DNA from: Candidatus Saccharimonadota bacterium
GTDB lineage: Bacteria > Patescibacteriota > Gracilibacteria > BD1-5 > UBA6164
Direction of reading: 5' to 3'
DNA: 32,000 nt
Assembly: GCA_004563595.2 (NCBI GenBank)
Contig: CP042461.1
Coordinates: 690,001 to 722,000, forward strand
Part shown: piece by piece, positions 5,167-28,553 of the stretch
How positions within the stretch are numbered: the first letter of the stretch is position 1
Layout of the letters: every line of letters begins with the position of its first letter
Translations under genes and position numbers: made by a program
Notes under the pieces: model-generated
What the model was told of the DNA's origin: nothing
Seen by the model: the letters and a program-made list of their open reading frames with translations, nothing else
The model's database searches: none

Positions 5167-5194
5167 TTGACTTATATATATAAACATATATAAT
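5167..5194 (+). promoter_or_regulatory. Sigma-70-type promoter of a recoded (native) gene
   Basis: TTGACT (5167-5172), a 16-nt spacer, then TATAAT (5189-5194), lying 33 nt upstream of ATG 5227. No GGAG-type SD lies before the start. Confidence 0.6.
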
Positions 5195-5226: not shown

Positions 5227-5562
5227 ATGACTGTAGATAAGAGTGAGCTTAATATTGTTAATAAGCAATGAGATAACACACTGAGTAACAAAGTAAGTAC
5301 TACTTCTGCTGAAATGAAAGATAAGATAAGTTTTATACTGGAATTAGTAAAAAATATGAAACCAGTTAAGATTATATCATCTTGAAGGTTATATAATCTT
5401 AACTTAAGTTGAAATATGTATCAATTAGAAGTTCAAAAATCAATTTGAGATATATTAGAAACGAGTGAATTTTTTTCTATATTTCAAATTGATAAAGATA
5501 AAGCTGAAAGAGTTTTCATAGATAAATCAAAAAATGAATTATGTATATTATATAAAGACTAA
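5227..5562 (+). CDS. Hypothetical protein, 111 aa
   Basis: ATG 5227 runs to TAA 5560-5562 with 4 in-frame TGA. It has its own consensus promoter. No family was recognised. Confidence 0.55.
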
Positions 5563-5629: not shown

Positions 5630-7090
5630 GTGAATAATAGCATAAGTAAAACTCCTATCATTCCTCGAGCTAATAATTGAGATACTTTAGATATATCTGA
5701 TACAACAAATAATGTTATAGATTTAACATCAAGAATATTATGAGAAAATCATAATATGCATGATCAATTGATATCAGATATAGAAAATGATCCAAGATTT
5801 AAATCATACGTGCTAGATTTTATTGATACTCATCAACCACTCACAGGATGACAAGAATGAGAAATATATAAAATTATGTATTGAGAGAATAATTATATCG
5901 TTGCAAAAAAAAGATATGATAATGATTCAGAAAGAGAGTATAGATTACAAAAAGATGCTTATCAAATATCATTGGACTCATTATCATGAGTAAAGGTTCC
6001 TAAACCTATGCAAGAATTCCATGATTCTGACAATTGATATTTAATTATGGAATTTATTGAATGAAAAACATTCTATACAATGGTATGGCAAGAGATAGTA
6101 AACTCTCATTTAATATCAATTGCAAAAAAATATATTATTGATAAATATGCATCAGATAATCAATTATTTGATGCGCATATGAATGAGTTAGATATGTTTA
6201 TCTCACACTATTGAGATGGTTCAAAAAGCAAAATTGAGTTTAAAGATGATTTTGAAAGTATTAATTGAATGAGAGTAATTTGTGATATATTATACGAACT
6301 ATGATATTTAAAATGAACTTTTAATAAAGCTGAAGTAAATCCGAATAACCCAAGCGAAAAGAATTATGTGATAGAAACGTGATTACTTGAAAGATTTATG
6401 TCTGAGATTTCTTTATTCAAAAATGAAGACTATAAAAATAACATAAAAAATTTAAGGATATTTTTAGATGACTTGCATGAGTCAGGATTATATCATAGAG
6501 ATATATGAAAAAATTTTAGAAATATAATTTTTTGACCAAAATGAGTATACTTAATTGATTTTTGAAGATCAATAACCTGTAAACAGCCGGATAGCAACTA
6601 TGATTATGACGGTTGAAAATATGCAAATGATTATGATATAGTATGGAATATACAAAAAACAAAAGTAAAAAATTTGGATGAAGAAAATAATGAAATAAAC
6701 CTCATAAATGAGGATCTAATAATTGAAAACTGAAATAAGCTCTGACTTAATATTAATAAATGACTCATAAGTAAATATAGTATGAATGCTAAAAATATAG
6801 ATTTATCTAAAATATTGAATGACTTTATAAATAAAAAAGATAAAGCTTATAATTGGTTTATTTATAACACAGGTTCAAATGAAGAATCGAAATCAAGCTC
6901 AAATCAGTGGGATATAAATTCAACAAATATTGGAAAGGTAAAGTTATTTATTTTAATAAGCCTATTATCTAATGATAGACTTAATATATTAGAGTCTAAT
7001 ATAAAACAATACATAGAATTACCCAAAAGAACCAGGAAGTATAAGTATTCAAAATTATTCAATGATTATATTGATGTAATAAAAGACTAA
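5630..7090 (+). CDS. Eukaryotic-like protein-kinase-fold protein (ePK / Kdo-RIO-like) with an unknown C-terminal region, 486 aa
   Basis: GTG 5630 runs to TAA 7088-7090. I checked every in-frame codion triplet by hand up to track ORF 6782..7090 and found no TAA or TAG. Motifs are the Gly-rich TGGQEGEIYKI, IVAKK (5897-5911), LYHRDIG(TGA)KNFRNI (6488-6526) and LIDFG(TGA) (6551-6565). Confidence 0.7.
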
Positions 7091-7124: not shown

Positions 7125-7153
7125 TTGACATACTTAAATAAATATATATTATA
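7125..7153 (+). promoter_or_regulatory. Sigma-70-type promoter of a recoded (native) gene
   Basis: TTGACA (7125-7130), a 16-17-nt spacer, then TATTAT/ATTATA (7147-7153). No SD lies before ATG 7183. Confidence 0.5.
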
Positions 7154-7853: not shown

Positions 7854-8888
7854 ATAATAATATCATCTTTTCTTTCTTCTAAAAGTCTCAATTGCCCAAT
7901 TAAACCAATATCATGAACTAATAACTAAATCTTGTGCATGGAGCAGTGAATAATCATATCAAGCAAATTTTCTTTTGAACTTTGAGACTCAAGCGATTGG
8001 ATGATTTGGGTTACCATCTGGAGAAACTCACCAAAAGTTATAAAGAGTACATCCATCTTGTTTTGCTTTCAATATAGCCTCCCATTGACATAAATAATTT
8101 GGAGAAAATTTATTACTTCTAATATCAGATGCCGCAACATAATATACACAAGTATTTCAAAACTTAATAGTCATCATTATAGATTCAATATATCATTCAT
8201 ATGATGCAGATATAGTAGAAATATCTTCTTTTGAAAAAACCTTATAGAGATTTTTGATATATTTCTTTGAAAATGCTGTATATTTATGCTTTCCGTTATC
8301 TCTCACAGCATGAGTTTGATGATAATTGATCAATGTATCAATATGATCCTTCTTATTGTCTATACGGATAACAACACCCTCCTTTTTTGCTCTATTAATA
8401 TAATATCTATCCTTTTTTGCTATATTACTTAAAAGTTCATCTTCAGAGGCCTCTAAGCTTAATAAGTGAGTATCCTCAGCATGAATATGCATTGGAGCAT
8501 CTATAAATCAAAGATTTTTATATTTTGATTTATTTTTCTCAGTATTACTTTGAACTCAGTTTAAACGTATAAAGCTACAGTTTTCTGATTCTGCAAGACG
8601 AACAAGGTGTTCTTGAATATCGTCTAAAACTTTAAAGTAATTTCACTGAATAAGTGGTCCATGAGGAGTAAAAAAGTAGGTTCATCTTTTTGCAACTACT
8701 TTTATGAGCTGAATCACTCAAATAAGTTCTTTTTTGTTATATATTCAGAGTCTAAATATATAATTCCCTTCTAAAATCTGAAACTCTCACCATTCCCATG
8801 AATCGACAAAACTATAGAATTCAAAACCTCAATTTATAATAAAATCATTCCATTTATTTTTTGAATCAATTATTTTTAACTTATACAT
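7839..8888 (-). CDS. FemAB-family peptidoglycan interpeptide-bridge aminoacyltransferase-like protein, 349 aa
   Basis: ATG 8888 runs to TAG 7839-7841 with TGA=Gly. It has FemAB-like features: an N-terminal W..F(.)..SWEWGEF stretch, the central block of track ORF 8193..8492 (LLSNIAKKDRYYINRAKKEGV), and a C-terminal YNFWGVSP...GVSKFKRKFAG. Confidence 0.8.
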
Positions 8889-8902
8889 CTTTTATTCATT
8901 CA

Positions 8903-10231
8903 TTAAATATAATACTTTTTTATAGTTTTCACTATTCTTTTTGCATCATTCAGACTTATTTCTGCATGGTTTGGGAGAGTAAATACTTTTTTACTTATTT
9001 TTTCAGCATTTAAACATGATCAAGCTCTATATCAAGCAGCTTGGATATTCGTTCCATTTGGAATTATAGCTCAGCCGTTCCAATAATCTCAAAGTAAAAT
9101 CTTATTTTTTTTACAGTATTTTTGAAGTCATACTGCGTCTACAACTATAATAACACATCCATAATGATTATTCAAAGATTTTTTTCAAGTTTTTATAAAT
9201 CTAATTTCTTTTATATCTGAGATTTTTTTTTGATAATATTCTGCCAGAAAAATCCTATGCTGATTATACTTATCTAATAGATCTAATTCTTTTCATCAAA
9301 GATATGCTAAAGCATTTGGCAGTTTATAGTGAAGTTGAGTAAAATTACAGTTTTTTTCTTCTGGGGTTAATATTTTTGTAATCAATTTCAGTTTACTCGA
9401 AAGAAAAATCAATATTTTTCCTATCCATAGAATATCATAGAGCTTGTATGCCATATATCATAGTATATTATAATTCAAATTTCTTAAAATTGTAATAATT
9501 GATACGTGTGTTAATTGAGTTTCAATTTTATCAGATATCTTAAAATATTCTTTATTATTTATAATAAGATACCCCCCTGTAACAGAAGAAATAACTTTAT
9601 CTCTCCCTGTTGAGAAAATACTAAAATCTCAGAAACTTCATACCTTTTTACCGTCAATTTCAGATCAAAGGGCATGGGCACAATCTTCTATTAATAGTAG
9701 ATCATTTTTAACACAAAGTTTTTTTACAACATGAATATCGATAGGGTTTCAAAATGTATGTTGTACCATTATAGCTTTTGTCTTTTTTGTAATCTTATTT
9801 TCAAGTGATTCTAAATCAAAATTTAGAGTTTTTATATCTATATCCGCATAAATAGGAATTGCTCCAGATTGAATAATAGCATTTGGAACAGATACACAGG
9901 TATAAGCCTGAATAATTATCTCGTCATCTTTTTTAATATTTAGTCACTGCAAAAGATTATATATAGCAGACCTCGCATTATAAAAAGAAATGACTTTAGA
10001 TTCTTTAAGACCTAAAATATCTCATAATTTTTTTTCAGTATTATAAATATATTTTCAATCTTTTAAATGGAACCAAAATAGAGAATTCCATAAGATCTTT
10101 AATGTATTTAAAAATATTTGAGAATTAATAGTAGTAAAAAAATGTGCTATAAGTGTTTTTCTGAACATGTGTATTATTTAGATATATATTTTGCTGACCT
10201 TCTTCATTCAAATAACATAACTGACTTTTCA
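8903..10231 (-). CDS. DegT/DnrJ/EryC1/StrS-family PLP-dependent sugar aminotransferase-like protein, 442 aa (start uncertain)
   Basis: TAA lies at 8903-8905. The conserved core is YTCVSVPNAIIQSGAIPIYADID, LLLIEDCAHALG(TGA)S, FSTGRDKVISSVTGG (Lys candidate for PLP) and LPNHAEISL. The only in-frame ATG is at 10231, which overlaps the murF 3' end by 58 nt. Confidence 0.75.
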
Positions 10232-11748
10232 TTTATATTCTTAAGATTCTTTAATATTTTTTCTTCTGAATATCCTCAGTCAATAAGTCCATTAATAAAG
10301 TCTTTTTTATAGTTTACTCATACATAATAAATTCATGCAAGGCTATGTGTTTGAGCAATTCTCTTTCAAATACTATTATGAATATATGCTGATTCTTTTC
10401 AAAGCTCTAAGATATCATCTAAAATAAGTATTGTATCTCATTCAAAGCTGCTGAGAACATTTAATCAGGAAAAAAGCGAGTCTTCAGAAAGATTGTACGA
10501 ATCATCAATATATATAGATCAATTCTTATTATGAGTTATATCAAGTGTTGATTTTGGAGACTTTATATTCAAAAGATATTTTTTCATATTTTCTATTGAA
10601 ATTCATAAATCTATACAACAAGCAATTACCCCTGAAAGGTTTGTAATATTATGAATTCATACTAGATTGGTTTCGAAAGTATACTTTTCTCATTTATAAT
10701 GAAAATCAAAAGAGCTCACTGCTTTCACGATATTTATATTTGAAGCATGTGCGTCTGTGTGCTTATAAAATCAATAAGAAACTACAGATAAATTCTCATC
10801 AAATTTTATATTTCTAATGTCCTGATTATCGTAATTTACATATAAAATTCCCTTATTTTCACTCACTTTATTAGCAATTTCACATTTTGCTTGAATAGTA
10901 TTCTTAATTCATCAGAATAATCATAAATGCTGTGTTCAGATCGCTGTAAGAAATCAATATTTATGATTTACTATATCTCAAAGAGTTTCAATCTCCCCTA
11001 TTCTATATGCTCACATTTCAGCTACAAAATAATCATTATCTTCTGATAGTTCATTTAAAATAATAGACGATACTCATAGCTCAGTATTTATATTTTCAGG
11101 CGTTTTTAATAGGTTTCATTCATTTTCTAATATACTGCATAAAAACTCTTTCACACTTGATTTTCCATAGCTTCCTGTGATTCAAATTTTTATGGTATGA
11201 TCATTGTTTTTTGATTTATTTGATGCTCTATTTATTAATTTATTTTTTTTGTATGATACAACTGGATGTAACACAAAAATAATCGCAAATATTATTCATA
11301 CTGGGATTAAAAATAATATAAATAAATATGAGTAGAAGAATTTGAATAATTCATTGTTAAGAATAAAAGCAAAATCGAAACTTATACCTACCAATAGTAC
11401 AAAAGCTATAGTAAGTAATCTTCCTGTTTTTTTAGGGAGAGTCAGTTTTTTTCTAAATATTTTTCATAATACAAATATATTCCAAAGTACTAAGAAGTAG
11501 AAAACAAGATTGTATAAAATATATTCAAATACTGGGTTGAAATATAAAATAATAGTCATGAGAAAGAATGGTACTTCTAATAGAAACCAGAAATTAAATA
11601 CAGCATTTTTTCCTTGAGGAGTATGTAAATATTCATTGAATCTATCCCATCTATATTCTTTTAATTGAATCACATAAAGCCAAAAAGAGTACTTATATAC
11701 CAGTGGAAGGATTGCTAATATGAGGAGTATTATATAACTTGATATCAT
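10174..11748 (-). CDS. murF: MurF-type Mur ligase (UDP-MurNAc-tripeptide--D-Ala-D-Ala ligase-like) with an N-terminal polytopic membrane region, 524 aa
   Basis: ATG 11748 runs to TAA 10174-10176. Track ORF 11464..11748 is the hydrophobic N-terminus. The P-loop IG(TGA)ITGSYGKSS lies at about aa 189-197. Later motifs are AEMG(TGA)A, IDDSYN and a C-terminal VMLFEG(TGA)RRSAKY. Confidence 0.8.
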
Positions 11749-11751
11749 TGT

Positions 11752-12534
11752 TTAAATATTCTTTAAAAATGTAGAAATAAGGAGCTTTGGATTCTGTAAA
11801 TGTATTCCATGTTTTTCATCAGGAATAGTAACTATCTTTGAGTGTGGTATTAATTTTCTCATGAACAATCAATCTGAGAGTGGAGTGTATGTGTCTTTTT
11901 CTCCCCAAAGAAGAAGTGTATTAATTTGTATCTGAGCTATATCTTTTGTGAGATCAGAGGATATCATATTTAAATATGTTTGTTTGAGGTAAGGATTCCT
12001 TTCTGCTTTTAAATAGTCTTGTGATCAGATGAATCTGTAAAATAAGTTTCTGAGTGATTTTAGAATTCTGCCCCCTCATTCTTTGGGTATTCCCTTTTTA
12101 ATTAGTTTTGTAATGCTATTAAATATTTTCCTCTTTACACTTCTTTTATTATCATTTCTTATTCAAGCAGAATTATTTAAAACAAGTCTTGTGATGTCTA
12201 ATTTTCATCTGTTTGCTATTTTAATCGATATTGCTCATCAATTACTATGTCACCAGAGTATAAGTTCATCAATTTTTAATTCTTTGATAAAATTTTCTAT
12301 CAGGAGAGCATAGTCATCAAGTGTAAATACTGATTTAATTTCTGTTTTTCAGAATCATGGAAGGTCAGGAATAATTACTTTGAAGTTATTATTTGATAAT
12401 AGCTCTCCTAACTGCATCCAACTATCACTCTCTCATCACCACCCATGAAGAATTACAATAGCTTGATCATGTTCAGGTCAATACTCTTTGTAGTTTATAT
12501 TATATGTTCAGATTTTGATTTGTTTTTCTTGCAT
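11752..12534 (-). CDS. Alpha/beta-fold hydrolase, 260 aa
   Basis: ATG 12534 runs to TAA 11752-11754, 3 nt before the murF start. Motifs are HGWGG (oxyanion region), the nucleophile elbow G-H-S-N-G-G at 12232-12255 with three Gly as TGA, and a C-terminal EKHGIHLQ (His). Confidence 0.8.
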
Positions 12535-12639: not shown

Positions 12640-13080
12640 TTATAGAGTATCTGAGTACGAACTTAAAACCATAAAAAAACCAATTACCTGTTTAGGCAAT
12701 TGGTTATTAATAATTTCTTTAATCACTCAATTTATACTAGTGAAAGTTATTCCTCCACACATCAGTAAAATTGGAATTGTGACAGAAGTAAATCCAAGAA
12801 TCTTATTCAAGATTATTTTTGTATCATACTTTTTGATGGAAGTATTAGTTTCATCACATTTTTTATTAACATATGACAACTCTCCTTGACTCATGTATTG
12901 AGCCTCAGTGTAAACACTTCTTGTGTTGGTTAAAACCTTACAATGTTTTTCTTTATCTATTCCTAAAGACCTACCTCGAGTAATAAAGAAGATTACTATA
13001 AAAAGGATCAATCCGACAAATAAGAATAACCCTATAACTGACACAATTACAAAGATTGTCACTATAAAATCAATAAACAT
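12640..13080 (-). CDS. Small two-TM membrane protein of the TGA-free cassette class. It is 117 aa if TGA 12727-12729 is a stop, or 146 aa if read as Gly to TAA 12640-12642.
   Basis: ATG 13080 is preceded by AAGGAG (13087-13092). There are 8 Gly, all GGN. It has hydrophobic N- and C-terminal segments. The standard-code ORF is 12727..13080. Table-25 read-through runs across its own terminator. Confidence 0.6.
12672..12705 (-). terminator. Intrinsic terminator of the small cassette gene
   Basis: On the minus strand, AACCAATT (12705-12698) pairs with AATTGGTT (12685-12678), with inner GG/CC pairs, followed by a T7 tract. It starts 21 nt after TGA 12727-12729. Confidence 0.75.
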
Positions 13081-13135
13081 ACCTTTCTCCTTTTTTTTAG
13101 TACATTATTTATACTCGAAAAGTACATGAAGTCAA
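13081..13135 (-). promoter_or_regulatory. Promoter plus Shine-Dalgarno of the small cassette gene
   Basis: On the minus strand: TTGACT (13135-13130), a 16-nt spacer, TATAAA (13113-13108), then AAGGAG (13092-13087) 6 nt from the ATG. Confidence 0.65.
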
Positions 13136-13319
13136 AAAAACTTAATAAAACCTAGCACTAAATGTTACTTTTAGAAGAAAAAGAACTAAAAAATAGTTAC
13201 TCTTATTAATAATGGACCAAGAGAAAGACTAAGCTATTTGACTCCTAATAAAATTTGTAATAACAAATCTAAAAATTGAATTTAACTTTAAATTCTAGAT
13301 ATATATTTATTGTAAGCAC

Positions 13320-13346
13320 ATAAAACCCCCTGTATTACCAGGGGGC
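13320..13346 (-). terminator. Intrinsic terminator of the 539-aa lipoprotein gene
   Basis: On the minus strand, CCCCCTG pairs with CAGGGGG (13326-13345) across a 6-nt loop, followed by TTTTAT. The stem is unusually GC-rich for this window. Confidence 0.8.
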
Positions 13347-13367
13347 TATATTATTCTCCTTTTTTAG

Positions 13368-14987
13368 TTAACAATCTATTAAATCCCCTAATAAATCACT
13401 TAATAAATCATCATCATCTTCATTTACATAAGCAGCATAAGCTACAGAAAATAAAAATCCACGAGTTGTTAAACTATCATAGTTTGTGAAATTTTCTACA
13501 ATACCTCGTTCTACAGCAAAATCTACAACTTGTTTTTGCCATGTGTCATCTATAGTTGAATTAAAACTATAGCCCAAATCAACAGCACTTAGAATAGCTG
13601 CTAAGGTTTCAGCTTTTGTAATATAACCTTCAGGATGAAAGTTAGTATTAGAAGTACTAATTTTACCCGCATCTGCTAGAGCTTCAATATATTTACAAGC
13701 CCATGTGTTTGGGGTTATAGCAGAAACGTCAGCAAAAATGTTATCACATATAGTTTTTGGATCTAAGTCAGCAACGAGTGTTGCAATCTTCGCAAACTCC
13801 TGTCTAAAAATATAATCATCTAAGTGATATTCCTCAATAGTTGTTAAGTTTGCAATAAATTCCAATTCCACCAAGCCATTTACCGCATCAATTTCCATGT
13901 TACTTGGTTCATAATCTGGATCCTTTACCTGTAAAATCAAATTTAGATCATCAGTATATCCTGAAGAAACCAAAGTTAAGAGATTATCTGTTACAGAATT
14001 CTCAATTTTAATATCAAATTCCTGATTTCCACTTAGATCCCAATAGCATCTGCTAAAAGAAGCATCATCAGTAGAATACTCGACTTCATTAATAGTGATT
14101 TGATGTAAATCAACATCATTTCCTATTACAAAGTTAAGACATACAGTATAGCCCTCGTCATTTGTAAAGTTAAAAGTATCTAAGATTACAAATGCTTCAT
14201 TCTCAGCAGGTAAAACACTAAATAATTCTGGTGTTTCCCAGTCAGAAATATTAAACCAATTTTTCCCATTTATAAATCGTGGGACAAAATCATGTGGAAT
14301 TTTACGACAAACTTGATGTTCGTCATCTAAGAAACATAAGCTCTGTATAGATTTAGTAGTTGATAAATATATCGAATTCAGACGTAAATTGCCTGACTCA
14401 TATACATATAAATCATCTCCTTCATGTACATAAACGTATGGATTATCCGAATAATTACTTATATATTTTTCAACCACTTTGGTTGGGATAAAATCAAGGT
14501 TTAATTCAGATAAATACAAATCTGAATAAACCGAACTATTAGGTACAGATATTGGCCTGGGAAGTCGAACAAAAGAATCAGAACTAACGTCAAACTCTTG
14601 AGCTACTCCATAGGCACGACTATATCCATCTCTATAAAGATTTTGAGTTACCTCATAGTTTCCTGCAGGAAGCTGAAAAATAATTTCATCTTCATACTTT
14701 CCTTCTATAAGAGCTCTTTTTTCTTCATAATAACTATGATCATCAGTGTTTCTCACTACTGCAATCAGAAGTGAAGCTGATTTCATAATATCTAATATAG
14801 ACAGATCACCTTTCGCTAATGCATCTTCAGAATTATATGAAAATTTAACTTCATACCTTTCTGCGGTACTAGCTGGCTCTTCTTCCATTGACCTCGGTTC
14901 AGGCTCAGGATCAGTACCTCCATCTGATCCACAAGCAGAAATAAAGAAAATGGTACAAAGAATAAAATAAGATAATATCTTACTCAT
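13368..14987 (-). CDS. Surface lipoprotein with C-terminal SLH-like repeats and an acidic tail, 539 aa (TGA-free cassette class)
   Basis: This is an intact standard-code ORF ending in TAA. Its signal peptide has the lipobox FISAC. There are 22 Gly, all GGN. The C-terminus resembles an SLH consensus (FADV....W..YIEALADAGKI....FHPEGYITKAETLAAIL, plus flanking partial repeats). The SD GGGAG lies at 14994-14998. Confidence 0.85.
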   Translation of the reverse strand: MSKILSYFILCTIFFISACGSDGGTDPEPEPRSMEEEPASTAERYEVKFSYNSEDALAKGDLSILDIMKSASLLIAVVRNTDDHSYYEEKRALIEGKYEDEIIFQLPAGNYEVTQNLYRDGYSRAYGVAQEFDVSSDSFVRLPRPISVPNSSVYSDLYLSELNLDFIPTKVVEKYISNYSDNPYVYVHEGDDLYVYESGNLRLNSIYLSTTKSIQSLCFLDDEHQVCRKIPHDFVPRFINGKNWFNISDWETPELFSVLPAENEAFVILDTFNFTNDEGYTVCLNFVIGNDVDLHQITINEVEYSTDDASFSRCYWDLSGNQEFDIKIENSVTDNLLTLVSSGYTDDLNLILQVKDPDYEPSNMEIDAVNGLVELEFIANLTTIEEYHLDDYIFRQEFAKIATLVADLDPKTICDNIFADVSAITPNTWACKYIEALADAGKISTSNTNFHPEGYITKAETLAAILSAVDLGYSFNSTIDDTWQKQVVDFAVERGIVENFTNYDSLTTRGFLFSVAYAAYVNEDDDDLLSDLLGDLIDC

Positions 14988-15089
14988 GATAGCTCCCTGG
15001 GTCGTAACCCTCTATTGATAAATTTTATTTTGATTTTTAAGCCAAAAAAATGACTAGCATGATAATAATCATTATATATATAATGTCAA
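14988..15089 (-). promoter_or_regulatory. Promoter, roughly 70-nt leader and SD of the 539-aa lipoprotein gene
   Basis: On the minus strand: TTGACA (15089-15084), a 16-nt spacer, TATTAT (15067-15062), and GGGAG 5 nt from the ATG. The -35 lies about 20 nt after the pcrA stop. Confidence 0.6.
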
Positions 15090-15109
15090 CTGCATTTCGG
15101 ATGAGCTTA

Positions 15110-17347
15110 CAGCTTCCTAACCGGAGCAATTCTAATATTCATCTTTTTAATTCCATTACTTGAAAATGCTATTTCAGCAAGCTCTCAAGTCAGGCTTGTA
15201 ATGATTCAGTTTCAAAATTTTGGATGTGCTACTTTATCTCACATAGAAAAAATTGAAACGTCGTTATTTGCAAGAGGTTTTACAACTTTTTTTGCTGTAC
15301 TGGCTCATCAAAAACTAAATCAATCCGAAGTTCATCAAAGTGATGATACGGATGAGAATATTGAGGTTCAACCAAGACTTTTTTCTGTTATAGCATAGTT
15401 TTCTATAAGTTGAGTATCTATTTCTTTCATAAACCTTGATTCTGGATTTCTTACATAATCTCAAAAATGAAATCTTTCTTTTGCTCTACTGATATAGAGT
15501 TCTTCTCTGGCTCTGGTCATTCCCACATACATGAGTCTTCTTTCTTCTTCCAATGCATTAACATCTCATACACTTCTAAAACTTGGAAATATCCCATCCT
15601 CAAGTCATGTTAAAAATACTCTTGTTTGTTCAAGTCATTTCGAAGTATGGATTGTCATAAGGGTGACATAGTCTTCCCTTTCATCTTTTGTATCCATATC
15701 TGTAATAAGTGCTACTTCTTCTAAAAATTGTGCGAGTGATTCTCTTGGATCCATTCAATTATATTGTGAGGCTACGGTTATTAATTCTTCTATATTTTCT
15801 TTTTTTGATTGCGCTTCATCTGTAGATAATCCATCAGTAATATATTCTTCATATTGAACAGCTTTAACAAGGTGTGAGATTAATTCTGAAACTACTATTT
15901 TATTTGATTGTTCTCTCAGTGTATTATATATTTCTCAGAATACTTTGATCGAGAGTCTTGCTGCTGGTCTGAGTTCTTCTACTTCATCTATATTCTCTAT
16001 GATTTGTAGGTACGGGAGTTCAAAATTTAATTTATAATTATCAAGTATTTCTATACTCTTTGCTCCTATTTTTCTTGTAGGGACATTAATTATTCTCTTC
16101 ATACTCACTGCATCATTAGAGTTATGAATCACTCTTAAATATCCAAGTAAGTCTTTGATTTCTTTTCTATCGTAAAACTTTTGACCTCAAATAACTCTAT
16201 ATGGTATATTTTTTATCATTAGAGCTTCTTCAAGTTGTCTTGATTGTGCATTTGTACGGTAGAGGAGGAGATTATCCGCATATTGTCATCCATCTTCAGT
16301 TCAATCTCTTATTATTCAAGCTATTATACTTGCTTCAGTTTTATCATCTGGTGCTTCAATATAGTTAATTTTATCTCATGTATTATTATCAGTCCAAAGT
16401 TCTTTTTTGATTCATGAGTTATTATTTTTAATAACTGAATTTGCTCCTGAAATAATGGTTTTAGTAGACCTATAATTTTGTTCTAATTTTATAATAAGTG
16501 CATCCGTATAATCTTTTCTGAAATTGATTATATTTCTCATATCAGCTCATCTCCACGAATAGATTGATTGAGAATCATCTCAAACGACAGCTAAATTTCT
16601 ATATTTTGCTGCTAATAGTTTTACTATTTCATACTGTGGAGCATTGGTATCTTGATACTCATCTACCATGAGATATTTATATCTTTCTTGATAAATGTCT
16701 AAAATTTTTGGAATTCTGAGCAATCAAAGCGTTTTTACCAATATATCATCAAAATCAAGGGCATTGTTTTGCCTGAGGTTTTCTTCATATTTTAAGTATG
16801 TTTTAAATACAACTTCTTTTATTGAACTATCAATTTCTGCTTCGTAGGCTTTTGCTGAAATCAGTGCATTTTTGGCATTTGATATATAAAATGCTATCTG
16901 TCTTGCTGGGTATTCTTTTTCATTTAAATGAAGTTCATTTTTAATAATTCATTTTAATACTGATAATTTATCAGATTCATCATAGATAACAAAGTCTTTC
17001 TTTAGTCAAATAGCTAATTCTTCGCTATCAAAATTGTTTAAGACTTCTTTGAGTATAAATATTCAAATCGAGTGAAAGGTTCCAATAAGTGGAAAGTTTC
17101 ATCTTGAATAAATACTTCTAGGAGTTTCAACTCAGAGAGTTTTTGCTACTCTTTCTCTCATCTCACTCGCAGCTTTATTTGTAAAGGTAACCATCATAAC
17201 ACTTGGTGGTACTATCCCCTTTTCTTTGATCATATAATTTACCCTTTGAGAGAGTGTTGCTGTTTTTCAACTTCATGCTCATGCTATAATAAGCAGTGGT
17301 CACTCTATTTTATTTTTTGCCTCTTCTTGTTTTGGATTTAATTGCAA
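15110..17347 (-). CDS. pcrA: ATP-dependent DNA helicase PcrA/UvrD, 745 aa
   Basis: A probable TTG start at 17347 (no in-frame ATG; begins [10 protein letters not shown]) runs to TAA 15110-15112. Motifs are Walker A AGAGSGKT at 17261-17284 (all three Gly are TGA), [40 protein letters not shown] (track ORF 15935..16132), TIHTSKG(TGA)[10 protein letters not shown] and a C-terminal [11 protein letters not shown] tail. Confidence 0.92.
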
Positions 17348-17433
17348 ATTATATGTATTAGTTCATAAATATTGCTATGATTTTATGGATTAATAATGAA
17401 ATGTAAAAGAGAATTTGGAGAAAAGAAAAAAGC

Positions 17434-17463
17434 TCTCATCCCTGAGAGCTTTTAAGGTTTATT
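17434..17463. terminator. Intrinsic terminator of the 477-aa lipoprotein gene (possibly bidirectional)
   Basis: AGCTCTCA (17440-17447) pairs with TGAGAGCT (17452-17459) across a 4-nt loop. On the minus strand it is followed by TTTTTTCTTTT. Confidence 0.8.
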
Positions 17464-17467
17464 ATGG

Positions 17468-18901
17468 TTATTTATCCAAGGGTAAATCAGCAGCGATATG
17501 CGAAGATAAACCAAATGAATTATCCACATTTAATACATCATATTTAATCCCATCTGAATATAATGCAAGATTCACGGTATCATCTACCAAAGGGTTAGTA
17601 GGTCTAATGCCAAAGGTTTCAAAGTCAGCTGATTGTAATGTACTATTTAGGCTCGTTACATCAAAATTTAAAACTCCAACGATAGGCCAATTTTCCAGTA
17701 TATTACTAGTATCAAAAGCATTGAATAATTCATATTTTCCATCGTAACTTGAGCCAGTTGTATTGAAAAGCAAAGTTGAAATTTGAACTTCTACACTTGC
17801 ATTCGAGCTTGATGATGTATTATTCCCTACATTTAATGATATATTAATTTCAGCTGTATCACTAGAATCCAATGTTGCGTTTGCCCATACATTTATTGTT
17901 GCTGGAACAACAGAAAAAGCTTTTGAGCTTATTATATTGTTCAGTTCGATATCTGCAATAGGTTCTCTTGAAACTGCCCCAATAATTCCAGTAAAAGCCA
18001 TTCCTGTTACTTTTGCATTTCTAAGAGTATGGCCAATCTTTTGATAACCAATAGTTTCTGTATTAAGCCCTATTGTTAGGTTATTAATTCCTTCAGGTAT
18101 TGTCAAAAAATTAAATGTAATAGTATTGGGACCAATATTGGAAAAATCAGTTATAGCAATAGGTGTATCTCCTAAATAGAGTGTAGCGCTTGAGATAGAA
18201 GCCCTTAAGTCAAGATTTTCCCCCTCAAAGGTATAAATTAATCCTGAACTAAGAATATCTTCATTAACAATCTCTATATTATTAGAAAATACTTTTCCTG
18301 AAGTTCCAGCAAGAATATTTTTTATATTTTTATTGACAGGACTATGAATATCTTCAGTGAGACTTGCAACTCCACTATCGGTTATAGTAACAATTCTAGA
18401 AGAAAATATTTCCTTATCAAGGATACCATCCTTATTTTTATCACCGGAATAGTATATTACTTCACCTTTTTCATTTAATGCAGATACTGAAACAAGTGAA
18501 GTTTCAACTGGATTAAACCCAGATTCAGGATCAGTATTCATAAACGACACATGTACAAGATAATCGGTTCCAGTTTTAGTAATATTTTCAAATGTAGCGA
18601 TACCATTTTGTAAAGATATACCTAAAACACTTCCAAGTAAATTATCGGGAGACCTAGAACCTCTATATAGCCTTACTTCATTGATTTGGTTACCTGTAGC
18701 ATCTTCTGATTCAGTATAAATATGCACTTGTACGGCATTTACTAAAGATGCTTCATCTACTTTAAATCCCAAAGTAAGAATATTATCAGCTCCTCGAGGT
18801 ACAGATTTATCATCTAATTGAGTAAGAGTGAGACTCGTACCACCACAGGCTCCTAGACTAAACATACATATTGTAATGAAAATCCCTTTTAGTAAGGTCA
18901 T
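17468..18901 (-). CDS. Surface lipoprotein, Ser/Thr/Asn-rich, probably beta-rich adhesin-like, 477 aa (TGA-free cassette class)
   Basis: This is an intact standard-code ORF ending in TAA. Its signal peptide has the lipobox FSLGAC. There are 37 Gly, all GGN. It has a DKNKDGILD calcium-loop-like motif. The SD AAGGAG lies at 18910-18915, 8 nt from the ATG. Confidence 0.85.
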   Translation of the reverse strand: MTLLKGIFITICMFSLGACGGTSLTLTQLDDKSVPRGADNILTLGFKVDEASLVNAVQVHIYTESEDATGNQINEVRLYRGSRSPDNLLGSVLGISLQNGIATFENITKTGTDYLVHVSFMNTDPESGFNPVETSLVSVSALNEKGEVIYYSGDKNKDGILDKEIFSSRIVTITDSGVASLTEDIHSPVNKNIKNILAGTSGKVFSNNIEIVNEDILSSGLIYTFEGENLDLRASISSATLYLGDTPIAITDFSNIGPNTITFNFLTIPEGINNLTIGLNTETIGYQKIGHTLRNAKVTGMAFTGIIGAVSREPIADIELNNIISSKAFSVVPATINVWANATLDSSDTAEINISLNVGNNTSSSSNASVEVQISTLLFNTTGSSYDGKYELFNAFDTSNILENWPIVGVLNFDVTSLNSTLQSADFETFGIRPTNPLVDDTVNLALYSDGIKYDVLNVDNSFGLSSHIAADLPLDK

Positions 18902-19019
18902 TTTCAGATCTCCTTATTATTTTTAAAGTTGAAACTATCACTAGTTTTGATGATAATCTATATTTAACCCCAATCAAAATGATTGTGGATGTATTATATA
19001 TAAAATAGTACATAGTCAA
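18902..19019 (-). promoter_or_regulatory. Promoter, roughly 90-nt leader and SD of the 477-aa lipoprotein gene
   Basis: On the minus strand: TTGACT (19019-19014), then TATAAT (18998-18993, 15-nt spacer) or TAATAC (17-nt spacer). A small bulged hairpin lies at about 18968-18988. AAGGAG precedes the ATG. Confidence 0.55.
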
Positions 19020-20633: not shown

Positions 20634-21050
20634 ATGGGAACTGAGAATGTATTATCAATAGAAGCTAAAACTGAGAATACAGATTTTTTTTCAAATCTCG
20701 AAAAAATGCCAGAAGAGTTCTTCTATGATTTTTCTATAGCTTTGTGAATAGACAAAGGTGAAGAATTAGATAAATCTCTTGTAACATATTTTATTAAAGA
20801 ACTCCTATACAATAGACATAGTCCATCAAAAACATATGAACATTTCTGAGTGAGCTTATCAGATTTTAGACAAGCATATGTATATACAGTATGAATGTAT
20901 CATGAAAGAAATCATTGAGAAGAAATTTATGAACTTAGTTCAACCTTTCAATTATCCATTTTAAATCTTATGAATGAAATAATTACAATCGAAGATAATG
21001 GTAGTACAAAACTGACTCGTCAAAAAATCAACTCAATAATGAACAATTAA
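20634..21050 (+). CDS. Hypothetical protein, 138 aa
   Basis: ATG 20634 runs to TAA 21048-21050. Every codon was checked by hand. It has 4 in-frame TGA. No family was recognised. Confidence 0.55.
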
Positions 21051-21114: not shown

Positions 21115-21212
21115 AAAAAATAGTTTTTTTGACTTTTTTTAAAATATTAAGGTCCTGTTAATGTCTCATCAGTATACTGATATAATATATTATAATACTG
21201 ATGAGATTAAAT

Positions 21213-21668
21213 ATGGGTCTAAACCTTCAAAATCGAGAACTTAATATTGGACAAAATATTATTAATGACATGCCTGATATATTTTTTGAAAAACTATCGG
21301 TGCAATTATGAGTCAGTATGGTATTTTTAAAAAATAAATTATTAAAATATTTTTGTAATGAAAATCCATCAATTGAATCCTGAAATTGTATTTCAAAAAA
21401 TTTAGAATGCTCATTAGTGGAATTCAAAAATCTGTATGAGTCTGTATTAGATACATCTGTATATCTTGTAAATAATAGTGAATCTGCATATAGTAATAAT
21501 CATGCAGGCCCTAGAATAAAAGACCATATGAATATACTGAGTAAACACTCAGCAGCACAAATATATATATTAGAGCTATTAGAGAATAAAATAAAAAAAG
21601 AAGATATAGAAGCAACTGTAGAAAAAGTACATGAAACATTATCTTGAGACAAAGAATTATCAAATTAA
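21213..21668 (+). CDS. Hypothetical protein, 151 aa (alternative in-frame ATG at 21201)
   Basis: ATG 21213 runs to TAA 21666-21668. Codons were checked by hand up to track ORF 21417..21647. It uses TGA=Gly. The antisense track ORF 21227..21427 is judged to be a shadow. Confidence 0.5.
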
Positions 21669-21737: not shown

Positions 21738-22835
21738 ATGACATCAAAAGAAATCCTTGATCATATACTAGAATATTCAGCTCTACAATGACATTCAGAT
21801 ATTCACTTCAATACATGACTACAGCCAAAAGCTAGAGATAAAAATTGAGAGATAGTTAATCTTGATAGTATAGAAATAATGGATAATAAAAAAGAACTCC
21901 CCATCTTTACAAAAGATATAATTGGGGGTATTATTGAATGTATGGTATGAAAGTCATGACTCAATAAATTTCAAGAAAATATGGAACTCGATAGCTCATA
22001 TACTATTGCATGATGAAGTAGATATAGAGTGAATTGTTATATGGATACGAAATGATATTCAATTGCTCTCAGGCTTATTCCCTCAGAAATACCAACAATG
22101 GAAAGCTTAGAACTTTCTGATACCGTAAAGGGAATGTGTGAAAAATCAAAATGACTCATATTGGTTACATGACCAACTTGAAGTTGAAAATCAACAAATC
22201 TAGCCGCAATGATAGATTATATCAATAAAAAATATAAAAAGCATATCATTACAATTGAAGACCCTGTAGAATTTGCTTTTGATAATCAAAATTCACTTAT
22301 CAATCAAAGAGAAATTTCAAACCATACAAAAGGCTTTCCAGAAGCAATTAGAGCTGCTCTGAGAGAAGATCCAGATGTAATAATGGTTTGAGAAATGAGA
22401 GATCCTGAAACAATAAAAGCAGCTATTACTTTAGCAGAAACTGGCCATTTAGTTCTCTCTACTCTTCATACAAATGATAGTGTTCAAACTATTGATAGAA
22501 TTGTAGATGTATTCCCGAGTGATCAACAAGCTCAAATTAGAATGCAACTTGCAATGAGTTTAGTCTGAGTACTTTCTCAAAGGCTCATTACAAAAGCTGA
22601 TAAAAATGGTAAAATTGCAGCCAGGGAAATTCTCATGTCCACAGATGCAGTAAGAAACCTAATAATCACTTGAAAAACGCATCAACTGTACTCTGTATTA
22701 GAAGTTTGAGCAAATTCTGGAATGATTCTTATGGATAAATATCTTCTAGAGCTCTATAGTAAATGACTTATTACAAAAGAAAGCCTACTATCGTATGCAA
22801 GAGATAAAGATAGTATTGAAATGATGATTAATTAA
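21738..22835 (+). CDS. pilT: Type IV pilus retraction ATPase PilT, 365 aa
   Basis: ATG 21738 runs to TAA 22833-22835. Motifs are Walker A TGPTGSGKST at 22167-22196 (three Gly as TGA), [20 protein letters not shown](TGA 22389-22391)-[16 protein letters not shown] and DRIVDVFP. Confidence 0.93.
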
Positions 22836-22845
22836 TATAAAAAAT

Positions 22846-23682
22846 ATGTTGGATATAAATTTTTTAAAAAACTCGAAGTTTTTCAATCAAAGAACACTCA
22901 AAAAAAATGAAGTGTTATTTGATGAAGGCGATATAGATAATAATATCTATATTTTATTAGCATGAGAGTTATCAGTAGAAAAATATACTACAAGAAAAAA
23001 AACAGAAACAAAAGTATTAGGTCACCTTATAAAAAATGATATTTTTTGAGAATGAGCACTAAATTCTAACCAAACAAAAGGGTTAAAATTAATTGCAAAA
23101 AGAGAAACACATCTTTTATATATAAATGCTCAGGAATGACTTGAGGAATTTTCAAAATCTCAACCAAAAGAATGATTAGATTTATTAAAATATATAATAT
23201 ATATATCAAATAAGAGACTCCTTGAGGCAAACTTACTTATTACTGCTAATTACCAAATAAGTCATGATATTCTTTCTCTTAACCAAATAAACAACAAATC
23301 AATTTTTGAATTAATCGATAGAATAAAAGATATAATTAATGTAGATTACATACTTTTTCTTGAAAAAAATACCGTAATGGAAAATTACCTTATAATGAAA
23401 TATGATTCAAGAAAACAGTGAAAGATGCAAAGTGAAATCATTGAAATCACTGATAACAAACTTGAATTATTAGAATTAAAATTAACAGATACTAATTATT
23501 ATATTCAAGAACTTGCAATTTGAGAAGATGGACTCTGATATCTTGTCTATTTTAGAAAAAAGAAAGACTTTGATGAGAATGATAAAAAAATATTAACATC
23601 CATATCTAGTTGAATCTCATGAGTAATAAAAGAAAAGAAACTTATAGAAGAAGAAAGAGATAAAAATTTTATGGAAAAATAA
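22846..23682 (+). CDS. Cyclic-nucleotide-binding-like domain protein with an uncharacterised (possibly GAF-like) C-terminal half, 278 aa
   Basis: ATG 22846 lies 10 nt after the pilT stop, and the gene runs to TAA 23680-23682. The N-terminal pattern LFDEGD....YILLAG(TGA)ELSV......IFG(TGA)EG(TGA)AL resembles a cNMP-binding beta-barrel. The phosphate-binding RxA motif is not evident. Confidence 0.55.
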
Positions 23683-26193: not shown

Positions 26194-26280
26194 TTGACTA
26201 TAAGTACTTAATACGTATAGTTTACAGTACTTTAGTATTTATTTCTTAACCCTCAAATGTAACTTTTTTGGAGAAAAAAG
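26194..26280 (+). promoter_or_regulatory. Promoter, leader and SD of the coiled-coil cassette gene
   Basis: TTGACT (26194-26199), a 16-nt spacer, TATAGT (26216-26221), and GGAG (26270-26273) 7 nt before ATG 26281. Confidence 0.6.
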
Positions 26281-27096
26281 ATGGAATTCTCAACTGAAAC
26301 AGCACCATATGTATGGTATGCTATGCAAATAGCTTTAGTATTTTCAATTATTACTATTATAGCAATAGCTATCAAGAATATAAAATTAAAAAAAACAAGT
26401 GAAAAGTTTAATCAGGATCTTGAACTAGCTCTTAACAATTATCAAGACCTAAGTCTTGATCCTGACGATCATAAAACTTCTGAGTTTGACTCAATAAGTG
26501 AACTAATAGAAACACTACTAGGCTTACGAATACAAAAACAAAAATTAGAAGAGAAAAATGAAAAGCTTGAAAAATCAAGTAATAACTTAGAAGAGCAAAG
26601 GGATACTGCTAACAAAAAAGTAGGTCAACTCCTTGAAAAAATAACAAAAACATTTAGTGAAATCTGTCCTGAACATTCTAAGGTAGCAAACATTAATAAT
26701 ATTGCAGCTCTTATAGCGGAAGGATATGAAGCACAAAAATTTAAATATGAGTCGTCAATTGAAGAAATAAAAGAACAACTGAGCAGAGTTAATGAAGAAT
26801 TAACTACAAAAAATAATGAAGTACTCAGGTTGGATGAAAAATATATGGATCAATTAGTTAGCTATAAAAGTGCTCTTATACTAGTAATAGCACTAAAAAA
26901 TACACTTATTAAAGAATCATATCTAGAACTTCTTGAAAAAAGAATAAGCCATTTAATAAGCACGGCTAGCGTTAAAAACGAGGGATCAATAAATATAATT
27001 ATAGAGTCCATAAAGCTATATATAGCTGATGAAAATGAAAAAGATCAACTCATCCAAATTCCAGTAAAAGAAATACAAAAACAATCAGTTGCATAA
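26281..27096 (+). CDS. N-terminally membrane-anchored coiled-coil protein, 271 aa (TGA-free cassette class)
   Basis: This is an intact standard-code ORF ending in TAA. It has one N-terminal TM helix (VWYAMQIALVFSIITIIAIAI) followed by long heptad-like Glu/Lys/Leu-rich sequence. There are 4 Gly, all GGN. It has its own promoter, SD and terminator. Confidence 0.8.
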   Translation: MEFSTETAPYVWYAMQIALVFSIITIIAIAIKNIKLKKTSEKFNQDLELALNNYQDLSLDPDDHKTSEFDSISELIETLLGLRIQKQKLEEKNEKLEKSSNNLEEQRDTANKKVGQLLEKITKTFSEICPEHSKVANINNIAALIAEGYEAQKFKYESSIEEIKEQLSRVNEELTTKNNEVLRLDEKYMDQLVSYKSALILVIALKNTLIKESYLELLEKRISHLISTASVKNEGSINIIIESIKLYIADENEKDQLIQIPVKEIQKQSVA

Positions 27097-27121
27097 AAGG
27101 AGGCTTCTGATTAATACAACT

Positions 27122-27155
27122 AAAAAAAGCGATACTCACGAGTATCGCTTTTTTC
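27122..27155. terminator. Bidirectional intrinsic terminator between convergent genes
   Basis: An A-run, then AGCGATAC (27128-27135) pairing with GTATCGCT (27142-27149), then a T-run 27150-27154. The murE stop (27155-27157) abuts it. Confidence 0.8.
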
Positions 27156-28468: not shown

Positions 28469-28553
28469 TTTTTGAATTTTTGTGTAATAAGATACATAAA
28501 ATGTAACGAAATAAGATAGAAAGTCAACTTAGGAAAAATCTCAGATATTTATC

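Follow-up and report, generated by a model that had tools for sequence, protein, structure and literature searches.

Is every gene of a recoded bacterial chromosome written in the dialect of its host? This question is raised by positions 690,001 to 722,000 of contig CP042461.1, a 32 kb stretch (the window from here on, numbered from its first letter) of Candidatus Gracilibacteria bacterium 28_42_T64, in which four genes for envelope proteins contain no TGA codon, carry a Shine-Dalgarno (SD) motif and stand among genes that use TGA freely for glycine. The genome is 1.34 Mb long, closed and manually curated, is translated with table 25 and lacks prfB, the gene of release factor 2 (RF2), which is also absent from other BD1-5 genomes (Sieber et al. 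2019, PMC6851277). Two of the window's products, those of 477 and 539 amino acids, are identical to proteins of this bacterium. The window has 27.7% G+C. Under table 11 it shows hardly any long open reading frames (ORFs), while with TGA as a sense codon it is 94% coding and holds 27 genes. The assignment of TGA to glycine could be read directly from the DNA: the invariant Walker-A glycines of PcrA, PilT, MurE, PriA, and DnaA are all TGA, the Walker-A codons of PcrA being GCA TGA GCA TGA AGT TGA AAA ACA. There was no Rfam match and no tRNA gene in the window.

The initial annotation had singled out four ORFs without TGA, at 12727-13080, 13368-14987, and 17468-18901 on the minus strand and at 26281-27096 on the plus strand. 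Recounting gave no in-frame TGA in any of them and 8+22+37+4 = 71 glycine codons, all GGN. TGA makes up 37-100% of the glycine codons in each of the remaining 23 window genes, and the earlier count for murE (19 TGA versus 10 GGN) was reproduced. Against the window background, the absence of TGA has a binomial probability of 1.5e-16 for the gene of 477 amino acids (aa) and 1e-9 for that of 539 aa. The exclusion concerns the reading frame only, as the +2 frame of the cassettes holds 20-33 TGA per kb, and the constraint is therefore on decoding and not on an RNA motif. Avoidance of TGA as a motif in RNA, for example as a nuclease site, was discarded because out-of-frame TGA is abundant in the same genes.

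The second property of these genes is the way in which they begin. All four have a GGAG-type motif 5-8 nt before the start and the 23 other genes have none, as had been proposed from the starts first inspected; the coincidence of SD and TGA absence (4/4 SD-led genes against 0/23 others) has a Fisher P of 7e-5. Every cassette also has a TTGAC(A/T) -35 box suitably spaced from a -10 box, and an intrinsic terminator of its own. In the scan for terminators and promoters, which covered 11-29 kb of the window, the four cassette hairpins were the strongest terminator-like sites: each is a stable, GC-containing hairpin downstream of the ORF (-15 to -19 kcal/mol, z = -3 to -6.7) followed by a U-run, and control intergenic regions were unlike them. 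The promoters had also been described as a mark of the cassettes; they are present, though not unique, because the native genes at 5227 and 7183 and murE have the same elements. As these three native genes combine -35 and -10 boxes and leaders of about 25 nt with no SD, the idea that the SD is a mere by-product of having a leader was ruled out.

The smallest cassette encodes a protein with two transmembrane (TM) segments. Its promoter (TTGACT-N16-TATAAA, 13108-13135) and SD (AAGGAG, 13087-13092, 6 nt before the ATG at 13080) precede an ORF of 117 aa if the TGA at 12727-12729 is taken as the stop; in table 25 the same gene is A9Q91_03345 (12640-13080, 146 aa), with TAA at 12640-12642. The terminator at 12678-12705 (12-bp stem, -15 kcal/mol, U-run) begins 22 nt past the TGA, that is, inside the table-25 extension. 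The gene is a strict ORFan, and the G+C content at third codon positions (GC3), glycine aside, is 0.28 against 0.19 in its neighbours (z = +4.2). The coiled-coil cassette, the only one on the plus strand, has its promoter at 26194-26221 (TTGACT-N16-TATAGT), the SD core GGAG at 26270-26273, 7 nt before the ATG at 26281, and a 271-aa ORFan product with an N-terminal TM anchor and a coiled coil (0 TGA, 4 GGN). Its bidirectional terminator at 27122-27155 (14-15 bp stem, -16.3 kcal/mol, z = -6.7) is shared with the convergent murE.

The two larger cassettes encode lipoproteins. The 539-aa gene (stop TAA) is read from a promoter at 15062-15089, TTGACA-N16-TATTAT, which agrees with the consensus at 11/12 positions and was the best match of the scan; its SD, GGGAG, is located at 14993-14997, 5 nt before the ATG at 14987, and not at 14994-14998 as first given. 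The gene has 0 TGA and 22 GGN codons, and its arginines (5 AGA, 3 AGG, 7 CGN) agree with the earlier remark that CGT and CGA are frequent there, 7/15 being CGN. The terminator at 13326-13345 (CCCCCTG...CAGGGGG and a U-run) is GC-rich, with -19 kcal/mol. The 477-aa gene has its promoter at 18993-19019 (TTGACT-N15-TATAAT), a leader of about 90 nt, the SD AAGGAG at 18910-18915, 8 nt before the ATG at 18901, and 0 TGA with 37 GGN; the product is predicted to be all-beta. Its bidirectional terminator, AAAAGCTCTCAGGGATGAGAGCTTTT (-14.9 kcal/mol), was found at 17428-17453 instead of 17440-17459. Directly after the TAA of the 539-aa gene (13356-13360, minus strand) and of the coiled-coil gene (27098-27103, plus strand) we observed AGGAG or AGGAGG; both motifs precede the terminators and no start codon follows. 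They could be what is left of a gene that came next in a donor operon, or an element of the 3' untranslated region.

The description of all four products as envelope proteins was borne out: two are Cys-lipobox lipoproteins, one is a two-TM peptide and one a TM-anchored coiled coil. The lipoboxes read FFISAC/GSD in the 539-aa protein (lipobox ISAC), FSLGAC/GGT in the 477-aa protein (LGAC), and ISTGC/GGS in the orthologue of the latter on contig L001. Sequence searches of Pfam, NCBIfam, PADLOC, PHROGs, and the PDB returned only one SLH domain and weak coiled-coil noise. The SLH domain (PF00395) is at the C-terminal end of the 539-aa protein, at residues 418-461 (E = 2.7e-6, 27.7 bits against a gathering cut-off of 20.8), and is also present in the SLH-region homologues P0004 and P0006. 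Pfam finds a single repeat, where three in tandem are usual for a wall-polymer binding module; the helical region 375-538 could leave room for degenerate copies. AlphaFold2 models of both lipoproteins, built on single-sequence alignments, had a predicted local distance difference test score of 34-35, and the model of the 539-aa protein (35) is unreliable.

Does the pattern extend beyond this chromosome? The survey sample consisted of 80 metagenomic loci, all clearly recoded, with ribosomal protein L21 of the relative L002 as the anchor; together with the window and L002 they make 82 recoded loci, with 776 genes in 675 kb. L002 and another relative, L003, were taken from a GTDB scan anchored on PcrA, whose other returns were mostly standard-code bacteria. 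Considering that differences in genome G+C confound a pooled codon comparison across genomes, per-locus tests were used. When the TGA fraction of each gene was divided by the background of its locus, the 443 testable genes gave a unimodal distribution at 1.0-1.2 and a separate spike of 14 TGA-free genes, with no gene between 0 and 0.1. The two lipoproteins of the window were the most extreme TGA outliers of the whole survey.

Strict SD motifs are depleted in these genomes, being found at 1.7% of non-window starts against 4.2% in random intragenic windows, and about 27% of the surveyed genes have a TATAAT-like box 3-12 nt upstream of the start. In Gracilibacteria protein bS21 is frequently missing; a lost anti-SD motif has been reported for some Parcubacteria only (PMC9297842). 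The few SD-led genes outside the window contained 14 TGA where 45 were expected, while SD-less genes gave an observed/expected ratio of 1.01; the association of SD with TGA poverty has a Fisher P of 5e-5 outside the window and 4e-9 when the window is included. These SD-led genes are small ORFan lipoproteins or membrane proteins lying between TGA-rich genes, several of them with their own terminators. Thus the distinct gene class that had been proposed recurs in other table-25 genomes, in independent assemblies. As regards L003 (Gracilibacteria D-17_MAG_45; 32.5% G+C), TGA is a small share of its glycine codons, with 5 TGA against 41 GGN in pcrA; the extent of TGA use therefore varies among table-25 lineages, widely so, tracking G+C content.

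A TGA-free gene could simply be one that arrived too recently to have gained the codon, and the orthologues bear on this point. The sole homologue of the 477-aa lipoprotein is encoded at 153-1631 of L001, an independent JGI (Joint Genome Institute) metagenome contig, with 44% protein identity. L001 has the same terminator sequence, and its downstream flank with the pcrA promoter is 91% identical, so that it represents the orthologous slot in a relative. The orthologue is also TGA-free (0/26 glycines), giving 0 TGA among 37+26 = 63 glycine codons in the pair, although a different GGN codon is used at 11/18 conserved glycine positions and the four-fold sites differ by 47% (saturation about 66%), equivalent to about 0.8 substitutions per four-fold site. 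For calibration we used 12 native orthologous gene pairs of loci L108 and L138, which are less diverged than the lipoprotein pair. In them, 29% of the conserved glycine sites pair a TGA with a GGN, and the probability of TGA given GGN in the other genome is 0.54; relative to this turnover, the absence of TGA in the lipoprotein pair has P < 1e-6. Since native GGN and TGA exchange so fast at lower divergence, a lack of time is excluded for the 477-aa gene. The orthologous cassette pairs of L143/L144 and of L108/L138 have likewise kept SD, TGA exclusion, and terminator. By these comparisons, TGA exclusion is upheld by purifying selection across deep divergence.

The same pairs carry signs of allele exchange. 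In L143/L144 the cassettes differ in 52% of synonymous codons and 34% of residues, while three of the four neighbouring genes have 96-100% nucleotide identity and the fourth 79%; a divergent allele was therefore recombined in. The 477-aa gene is a mosaic, with a synonymous difference from its orthologue of 0.5-0.65, near saturation, in the 5' two-thirds and everything upstream, and of 0.2-0.35 in the 3' third, next to the 91% identical flank. To judge from these patterns, the cassettes change and recombine much faster than their flanks.

The small gene raises a question of its own, that of where it ends. The ORF as first given, 12727-13080, ends in TGA, a sense codon in its host, and the next in-frame TAA is only at 12640, beyond the hairpin at 12678-12705. 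The same arrangement was found in the other SD-led genes with one TGA, which falls late in the ORF with an intrinsic terminator directly after: at codon 69 in the L108/L138 cassette, in both genomes, and at codon 73 in the L147 cassette, followed by a hairpin of -19.6 kcal/mol. The hairpin loops of L108 and L138 differ by a 1-nt indel, which shifts the frame of the extension within otherwise nearly identical DNA, so that the extension is not under coding constraint. An unbiased terminator scan of the loci gave 534 terminator-like sites, 67 of them inside table-25 ORFs. The pattern of a TGA-free ORF with several GGN, then TGA, then a hairpin occurred in TGA-rich loci in exactly four genes (window 12640-13080, L108, L138, L147), all SD-led; no SD-less gene showed it. 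These four also have a GC3 of z = +3.5 to +8.4 relative to their own genomes, and the remaining cassettes of z = -1.3 to +0.7. This split therefore separates a foreign-looking subclass, with the small gene of the window, from a resident subclass with the lipoproteins and the coiled-coil gene.

Each of the four putative TGA stops (window 12719-12731, minus strand; L108 17210-17222; L138 15420-15432; L147 13329-13340) is followed by GT, the context being TGAGTG three times and TGAGTC once. At this site the small gene and L108 have TTGAGTGAT in common, and in the small gene all three frames of the standard code meet a stop within 11 nt (TGAGTGATTAA). TGAGT as a special stop context was rejected: GT follows sense TGA in 7.2% of cases and any codon in 5.8%, a normal frequency, and the GT is therefore probably no dedicated signal. 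The last 29 residues of A9Q91_03345 as deposited cross the terminator hairpin and are probably outside the functional protein. If transcription ends at the hairpin, the mRNA of this gene would have no in-frame stop in its RF2-less host.

Codon usage other than that of glycine shows how far the cassettes belong to their genome. Synonymous usage is the same as in the neighbours in 16/18 amino acids, and only glycine (P = 2e-25) and arginine (P = 1e-6) differ. In all cassettes but the small gene GC3 is the same as in the neighbours, the surplus G+C being in codon positions 1 and 2. AGA is 13/32 of the arginine codons in the cassettes, 195/257 in the neighbours, and 1/6 in the L001 orthologue, and six of the window's ten CGA codons are inside the cassettes. 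Highly expressed genes were used as a benchmark. L21 of recoded genomes has 132 TGA and 381 GGN, a fraction of 0.257 against 0.594 in other genes (observed/expected 0.47), and 18/60 copies are TGA-free; in L002 both S15 and L21 are. Of 22 recurrent families, only L21 and a VTC-domain family fall below 0.5 observed/expected TGA, the antisense shadow ORF of L21 aside. An S-layer-like gene of 1132 aa in L082 (1449-4847) uses TGA in 4/74 glycine codons and has no SD; its GGT share is 59/74, AGA is 19/19 of arginine, codons ending in T (NNT) reach 0.77, and GC3 is 0.06. In the public metagenome, where genes were called with table 11, it appears as three separate proteins. L21 similarly has raised GGT, AGA, and NNT, a mean GC3 z of -1.6, and no SD, with AGA at 94-100% of arginine in the two benchmarks.

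The codon signature of L21, as taken from the other recoded loci, was not found in the cassettes. In the window cassettes, as in the L001 orthologue, GGA is at or above GGT, GGG and GGC are appreciable, AGA makes up no more than 55% of arginine, CGA and CGT are enriched, GC3 is native, and NNT is only modestly shifted; the trend in arginine is opposite to the AGA enrichment of L21 and the S-layer-like gene. A weaker general adaptation than that of L21, together with an absolute exclusion of TGA, therefore indicates a categorical and not a graded constraint. The TGA exclusion of the cassettes is thus distinct from the graded codon optimisation of ribosomal and S-layer-type genes. It is not a general property of surface genes either: that all SLH, lipobox, or pilin genes avoid TGA was ruled out, since other SLH genes, SD-less lipobox genes, and pilin genes are not TGA-depleted.

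Searches for a source outside the recoded lineages gave no standard-code homologue for the 477-aa, 539-aa, and small proteins among 5.8 billion proteins, or for the coiled-coil protein among 1.8 billion cluster representatives, where nothing significant was found. In the larger set, the 477-aa protein retrieved its one homologue on L001, the small protein only itself, and the SLH protein partial matches only, at the SLH region and all in other recoded genomes. A phage or plasmid origin was set aside after negative scans of viral contigs and tblastn of GenBank phages and plasmids, in which the sole match was a generic 30% SLH-domain similarity to a Paenibacillus plasmid record. Taken as possible islands, the cassettes are atypical in composition only for the small gene (GC3 z = +4.2; the others z = -0.5 to -1.3), and no donor emerged: besides the proteins themselves, the searches retrieved a single syntenic orthologue and, in other recoded genomes, partial matches to SLH.

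The core genes around the cassettes are wecB-like, SPFH, protein kinase, femAB-like, DegT-like, murF, and alpha/beta hydrolase genes, then pcrA, rlmD, and pilT, and further genes for a cNMP-binding protein, a priA fragment, dnaX, murE, a DUF4012 protein, and dnaA. Native promoters of the form TTGACW-N16-TANNNT lie at 5167-5194 (+), 7125-7152 (+), and 28500-28527 (-). At genes 251-1624, 5630-7090, and 21201-21668 and at pcrA (17347) a TATAAT-like box precedes the start by only 3-12 nt, which suggests leaderless or near-leaderless mRNAs at such native genes. Two small acidic proteins encoded just upstream of pilT (20634-21050 and 21201-21668, +) have no Pfam match and are loosely alike, and pilT itself (21738-22835, +) overlaps by 41 nt with the next gene (22795-23682, +; cNMP-binding domain). 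In L002, pcrA (9998-12181) is adjoined by two non-homologous TGA-free small ORFs on the minus strand, 9139-9537 and 9541-9861, preceded by AAAGGGA and AAAGGAA, a hint that such cassettes may favour the flanks of pcrA as a site. The L002 ORF at 8721-9041 has a GC3 of 0.46 and is located after a terminator, and for these reasons it may be an RNA gene instead of a coding gene.

Taking into account the exclusion of TGA in the reading frame, its persistence and the exchange of alleles, we tentatively read the four genes as accessory envelope cassettes that evolve fast, recombine, and are kept code-neutral. They would belong to a rare recurrent class of such cassettes in Gracilibacteria with UGA as glycine, written in a standard-code grammar, each an autonomous unit of a sigma-70-type promoter, a leader of 25-90 nt, a strong SD, a TGA-free ORF, and an intrinsic terminator, placed between TGA-rich, SD-less core genes. 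The class may derive from, and still swap alleles with, a code-neutral flexible gene pool held in other lineages and possibly in the known mobile elements that lack TGA and target Gracilibacteria. The resident copies would then stay readable with UGA either as glycine or as a stop, and the products would be variable cell-surface components in interactions with host, prey, or phage. The three larger genes would be long-resident members and the small two-TM gene a recent import, which for that gene taken alone is likely. Code-neutral genes had been among the explanations put forward in the initial annotation, and this one matches best the categorical, in-frame-only exclusion, although we found no evidence of expression in another cytoplasm. 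Overall, the three explanations of that annotation are supported in part: elements of import and of code neutrality are retained, and high expression is taken as contributing.

Several observations weigh against this reading. Outside the window the class is small, with about 12 members from 9 families. Glycine and arginine aside, codon usage is fully native in three of the four window cassettes, and their modest NNT shift toward L21 suggests fairly high expression. The cassette proteins have no homologue in IMG/VR viral contigs, PHROGs, or GenBank phages and plasmids, and as none was found outside recoded genomes, the postulated external pool is unobserved. None of the 27 window genes is an integrase or transposase, in line with the earlier statement that mobility genes and flanking repeats are missing, for repeats without a separate search. 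In L108/L138, the divergence of the cassette is in step with that of its neighbours, so that the exclusion persists under vertical inheritance in a table-25 cell, which an explanation at the level of the pool alone leaves unaccounted for.

The main rival is a native origin. Under it, the cassettes would be very strongly expressed envelope genes; decoding of UGA by tRNA-Gly(UCA) would be slower or more error-prone than that of GGN, TGA would be purged from the genes of greatest output or greatest SD-driven ribosome density, and promoter, SD, and terminator would be the classical architecture of a major surface-protein gene. Exclusion upheld in situ, the missing donor homologues, and the native GC3 and modest NNT shift of the three large cassettes all agree with it, a set of this kind had been among the proposals of the initial annotation, and the avoidance of TGA with expression is real (26% in L21 versus 59%, with 18/60 copies TGA-free, S15 and L21 of L002 TGA-free, and 4/74 in the S-layer-like gene). 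Rare mistranslation of UGA has also been seen by proteomics (Hanke et al. 2014, PMC4032931). The benchmark genes, however, have no SD and keep 5-38% TGA, against 0 among the 71 glycine codons of the cassettes; the GGT/AGA/NNT/low-GC3 signature is absent from the latter, where AGA is depleted and not enriched; SD-less lipobox genes and pilin genes show no TGA depletion; and the lone TGA before a terminator, the non-coding extension, and the foreign GC3 are left unexplained. We therefore regard this account as possible but on the doubtful side. A recent direct import from a standard-code, SD-using, AT-rich bacterium, such as a Firmicutes-like host or prey, with TGA not yet gained, had also been suggested. 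The SD, -35/-10 promoter, and terminator grammar, foreign to a genome otherwise without SD use, the SLH domain, and the CGN arginine codons would fit it, and it retains force for the small two-TM gene and its counterparts in L108, L138, and L147, with their raised GC3 and TGA before a terminator. For the 477-aa gene it is largely refuted by the TGA-free syntenic orthologue at about 0.8 substitutions per four-fold site. No standard-code, phage, or plasmid homologue appeared in the 5.8 billion proteins, 1.8 billion cluster representatives, and phage and plasmid collections searched, the relatives of the SLH region in the protein search are confined to other recoded genomes, and the codon usage is the host's in 16/18 amino acids, so that as a general explanation import is improbable.

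Still less probable is a conditional decoding of UGA, by which, in SD-led mRNAs or without tRNA-Gly(UCA), it would end translation through some release or rescue route in cells lacking RF2, so that the cassettes would have to avoid it internally and could use it as a stop. An absolute in-frame exclusion upheld in situ, its exclusive link to SD sites, and TGA directly before terminators in three independent families are what it would produce, yet prfB is absent from this and other BD1-5 genomes (PMC6851277), no mechanism coupling the mode of initiation to decoding is known, sense TGAs do not avoid a following GT (7.2% versus 5.8% for any codon), and the foreign GC3 of the TGA-stop genes is more simply explained by import. 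That the whole pattern is an artefact of chance, mis-assembly, or stitched-in contaminating standard-code DNA is hardly credible: the genome is closed and manually curated (PMC6851277), the cassettes use the host's codons, the independent contig L001 shows the same junction of 477-aa gene, terminator, and pcrA promoter, the statistics are extreme, and the class recurs in independent assemblies. A bolder extension, which we consider unlikely to hold, is that UGA has two operational meanings in one lineage, the SD-led surface genes being strictly UGA-free, and sometimes UGA-terminated, so that they can be translated where UGA is not glycine. Such a situation is conceivable when tRNA-Gly(UCA) is depleted or destroyed during attack by TGA-free phages, when termination at UGA depends on context, or when a host or prey cell with the standard code expresses the genes in its cytoplasm. 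If true, the cassettes would form a set of genes for emergency or interaction that does not depend on the code.

By comparison with known systems, the code-neutral cassettes that we favour resemble most closely the many phages predicted to infect Gracilibacteria and Absconditabacteria that are TGA-free and compatible with code 11 (Liu et al. 2023, mBio, PMC10746230). In those phages, TGA stops are backed by other stop codons, while integrated prophages of these hosts are TGA-dense (PMC10746230). Like them, the cassettes have no in-frame TGA despite a host with UGA as glycine, can be read in both codes, and can use TGA as a stop with a further in-frame stop after it; for 3/4 cassettes tables 11 and 25 give the same ORF, and for the fourth table 25 only adds a read-through tail of 29 codons. 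Unlike them, the cassettes are single chromosomal units between core genes near dnaA, have no phage hallmark genes and no homology in the phage collections searched, and their backup stop is 22-40 codons downstream, past the terminator. Phage morons and ORFan accessory cassettes are single genes with their own promoter and terminator inserted between unrelated genes, a description that the cassettes share, except that these are outside any prophage and no mobility gene is among the 27 of the window.

Other likenesses concern expression. The codon bias of highly expressed genes includes the avoidance of reassigned or ambiguous codons, such as CUG in Candida, and L21 and the S-layer-like gene of recoded genomes under-use TGA in this manner; the cassettes differ in being absolute in their exclusion, in having an SD, and in lacking the accompanying codon signature. 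Genes of S-layer proteins and major lipoproteins have a strong promoter, a long stabilising leader, a strong SD, and an efficient terminator. The cassettes are also monocistronic, with -35 and -10 boxes, leaders of 25-90 nt, SD, and strong terminator, and encode envelope proteins, one with an SLH domain. They depart from that model in having a single detectable SLH repeat and no membership in an S-layer family; such an architecture also leaves the TGA-stop members and their foreign GC3 unexplained. SD-poor bacterial genomes such as those of Bacteroidetes keep a few SD-led genes, and the sampled recoded loci are similarly SD-depleted with a handful of exceptions. Here, in contrast, the SD is coupled to exclusion of the reassigned codon, and the genes that have it are ORFan envelope proteins, not ribosomal or regulatory genes. 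In ciliates such as Condylostoma, stops depend on context, through eRF1 and proximity of the poly(A) tail, and the resemblance lies in a UGA that is sense in most genes yet stands at the apparent end of some, near the 3' end of the mRNA; that system is eukaryotic, no UGA-reading release factor is known here, and import is simpler. The finding builds on known phenomena, namely biased codon use, the transfer of genes over a code boundary, and phage genes that are code-neutral. The class had been thought undescribed, and a chromosomal class of SD-led, TGA-free genes was indeed not found described in the literature searched.

Recoding is usually taken to be uniform throughout a genome, and the altered code to wall it off from gene exchange. 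In these genomes the host dialect is ignored by a small but reproducible group of chromosomal genes, which use the SD and exclude the reassigned codon under selection, and some of its members still carry UGA at the standard stop position in cells without RF2. If the pattern holds genome-wide, annotators should be warned that the table-25 call for A9Q91_03345 and similar genes probably adds a spurious C-terminal tail. It would also provide a simple sequence signature by which flexible genes for surface and interaction could be found in uncultured Gracilibacteria and Absconditabacteria, a handle on genes that cross a genetic-code boundary and on their later fate, and a case in which the cost of reading a reassigned stop codon can be tested, which would be of interest both to the evolution of the genetic code and to the biology of the Candidate Phyla Radiation.

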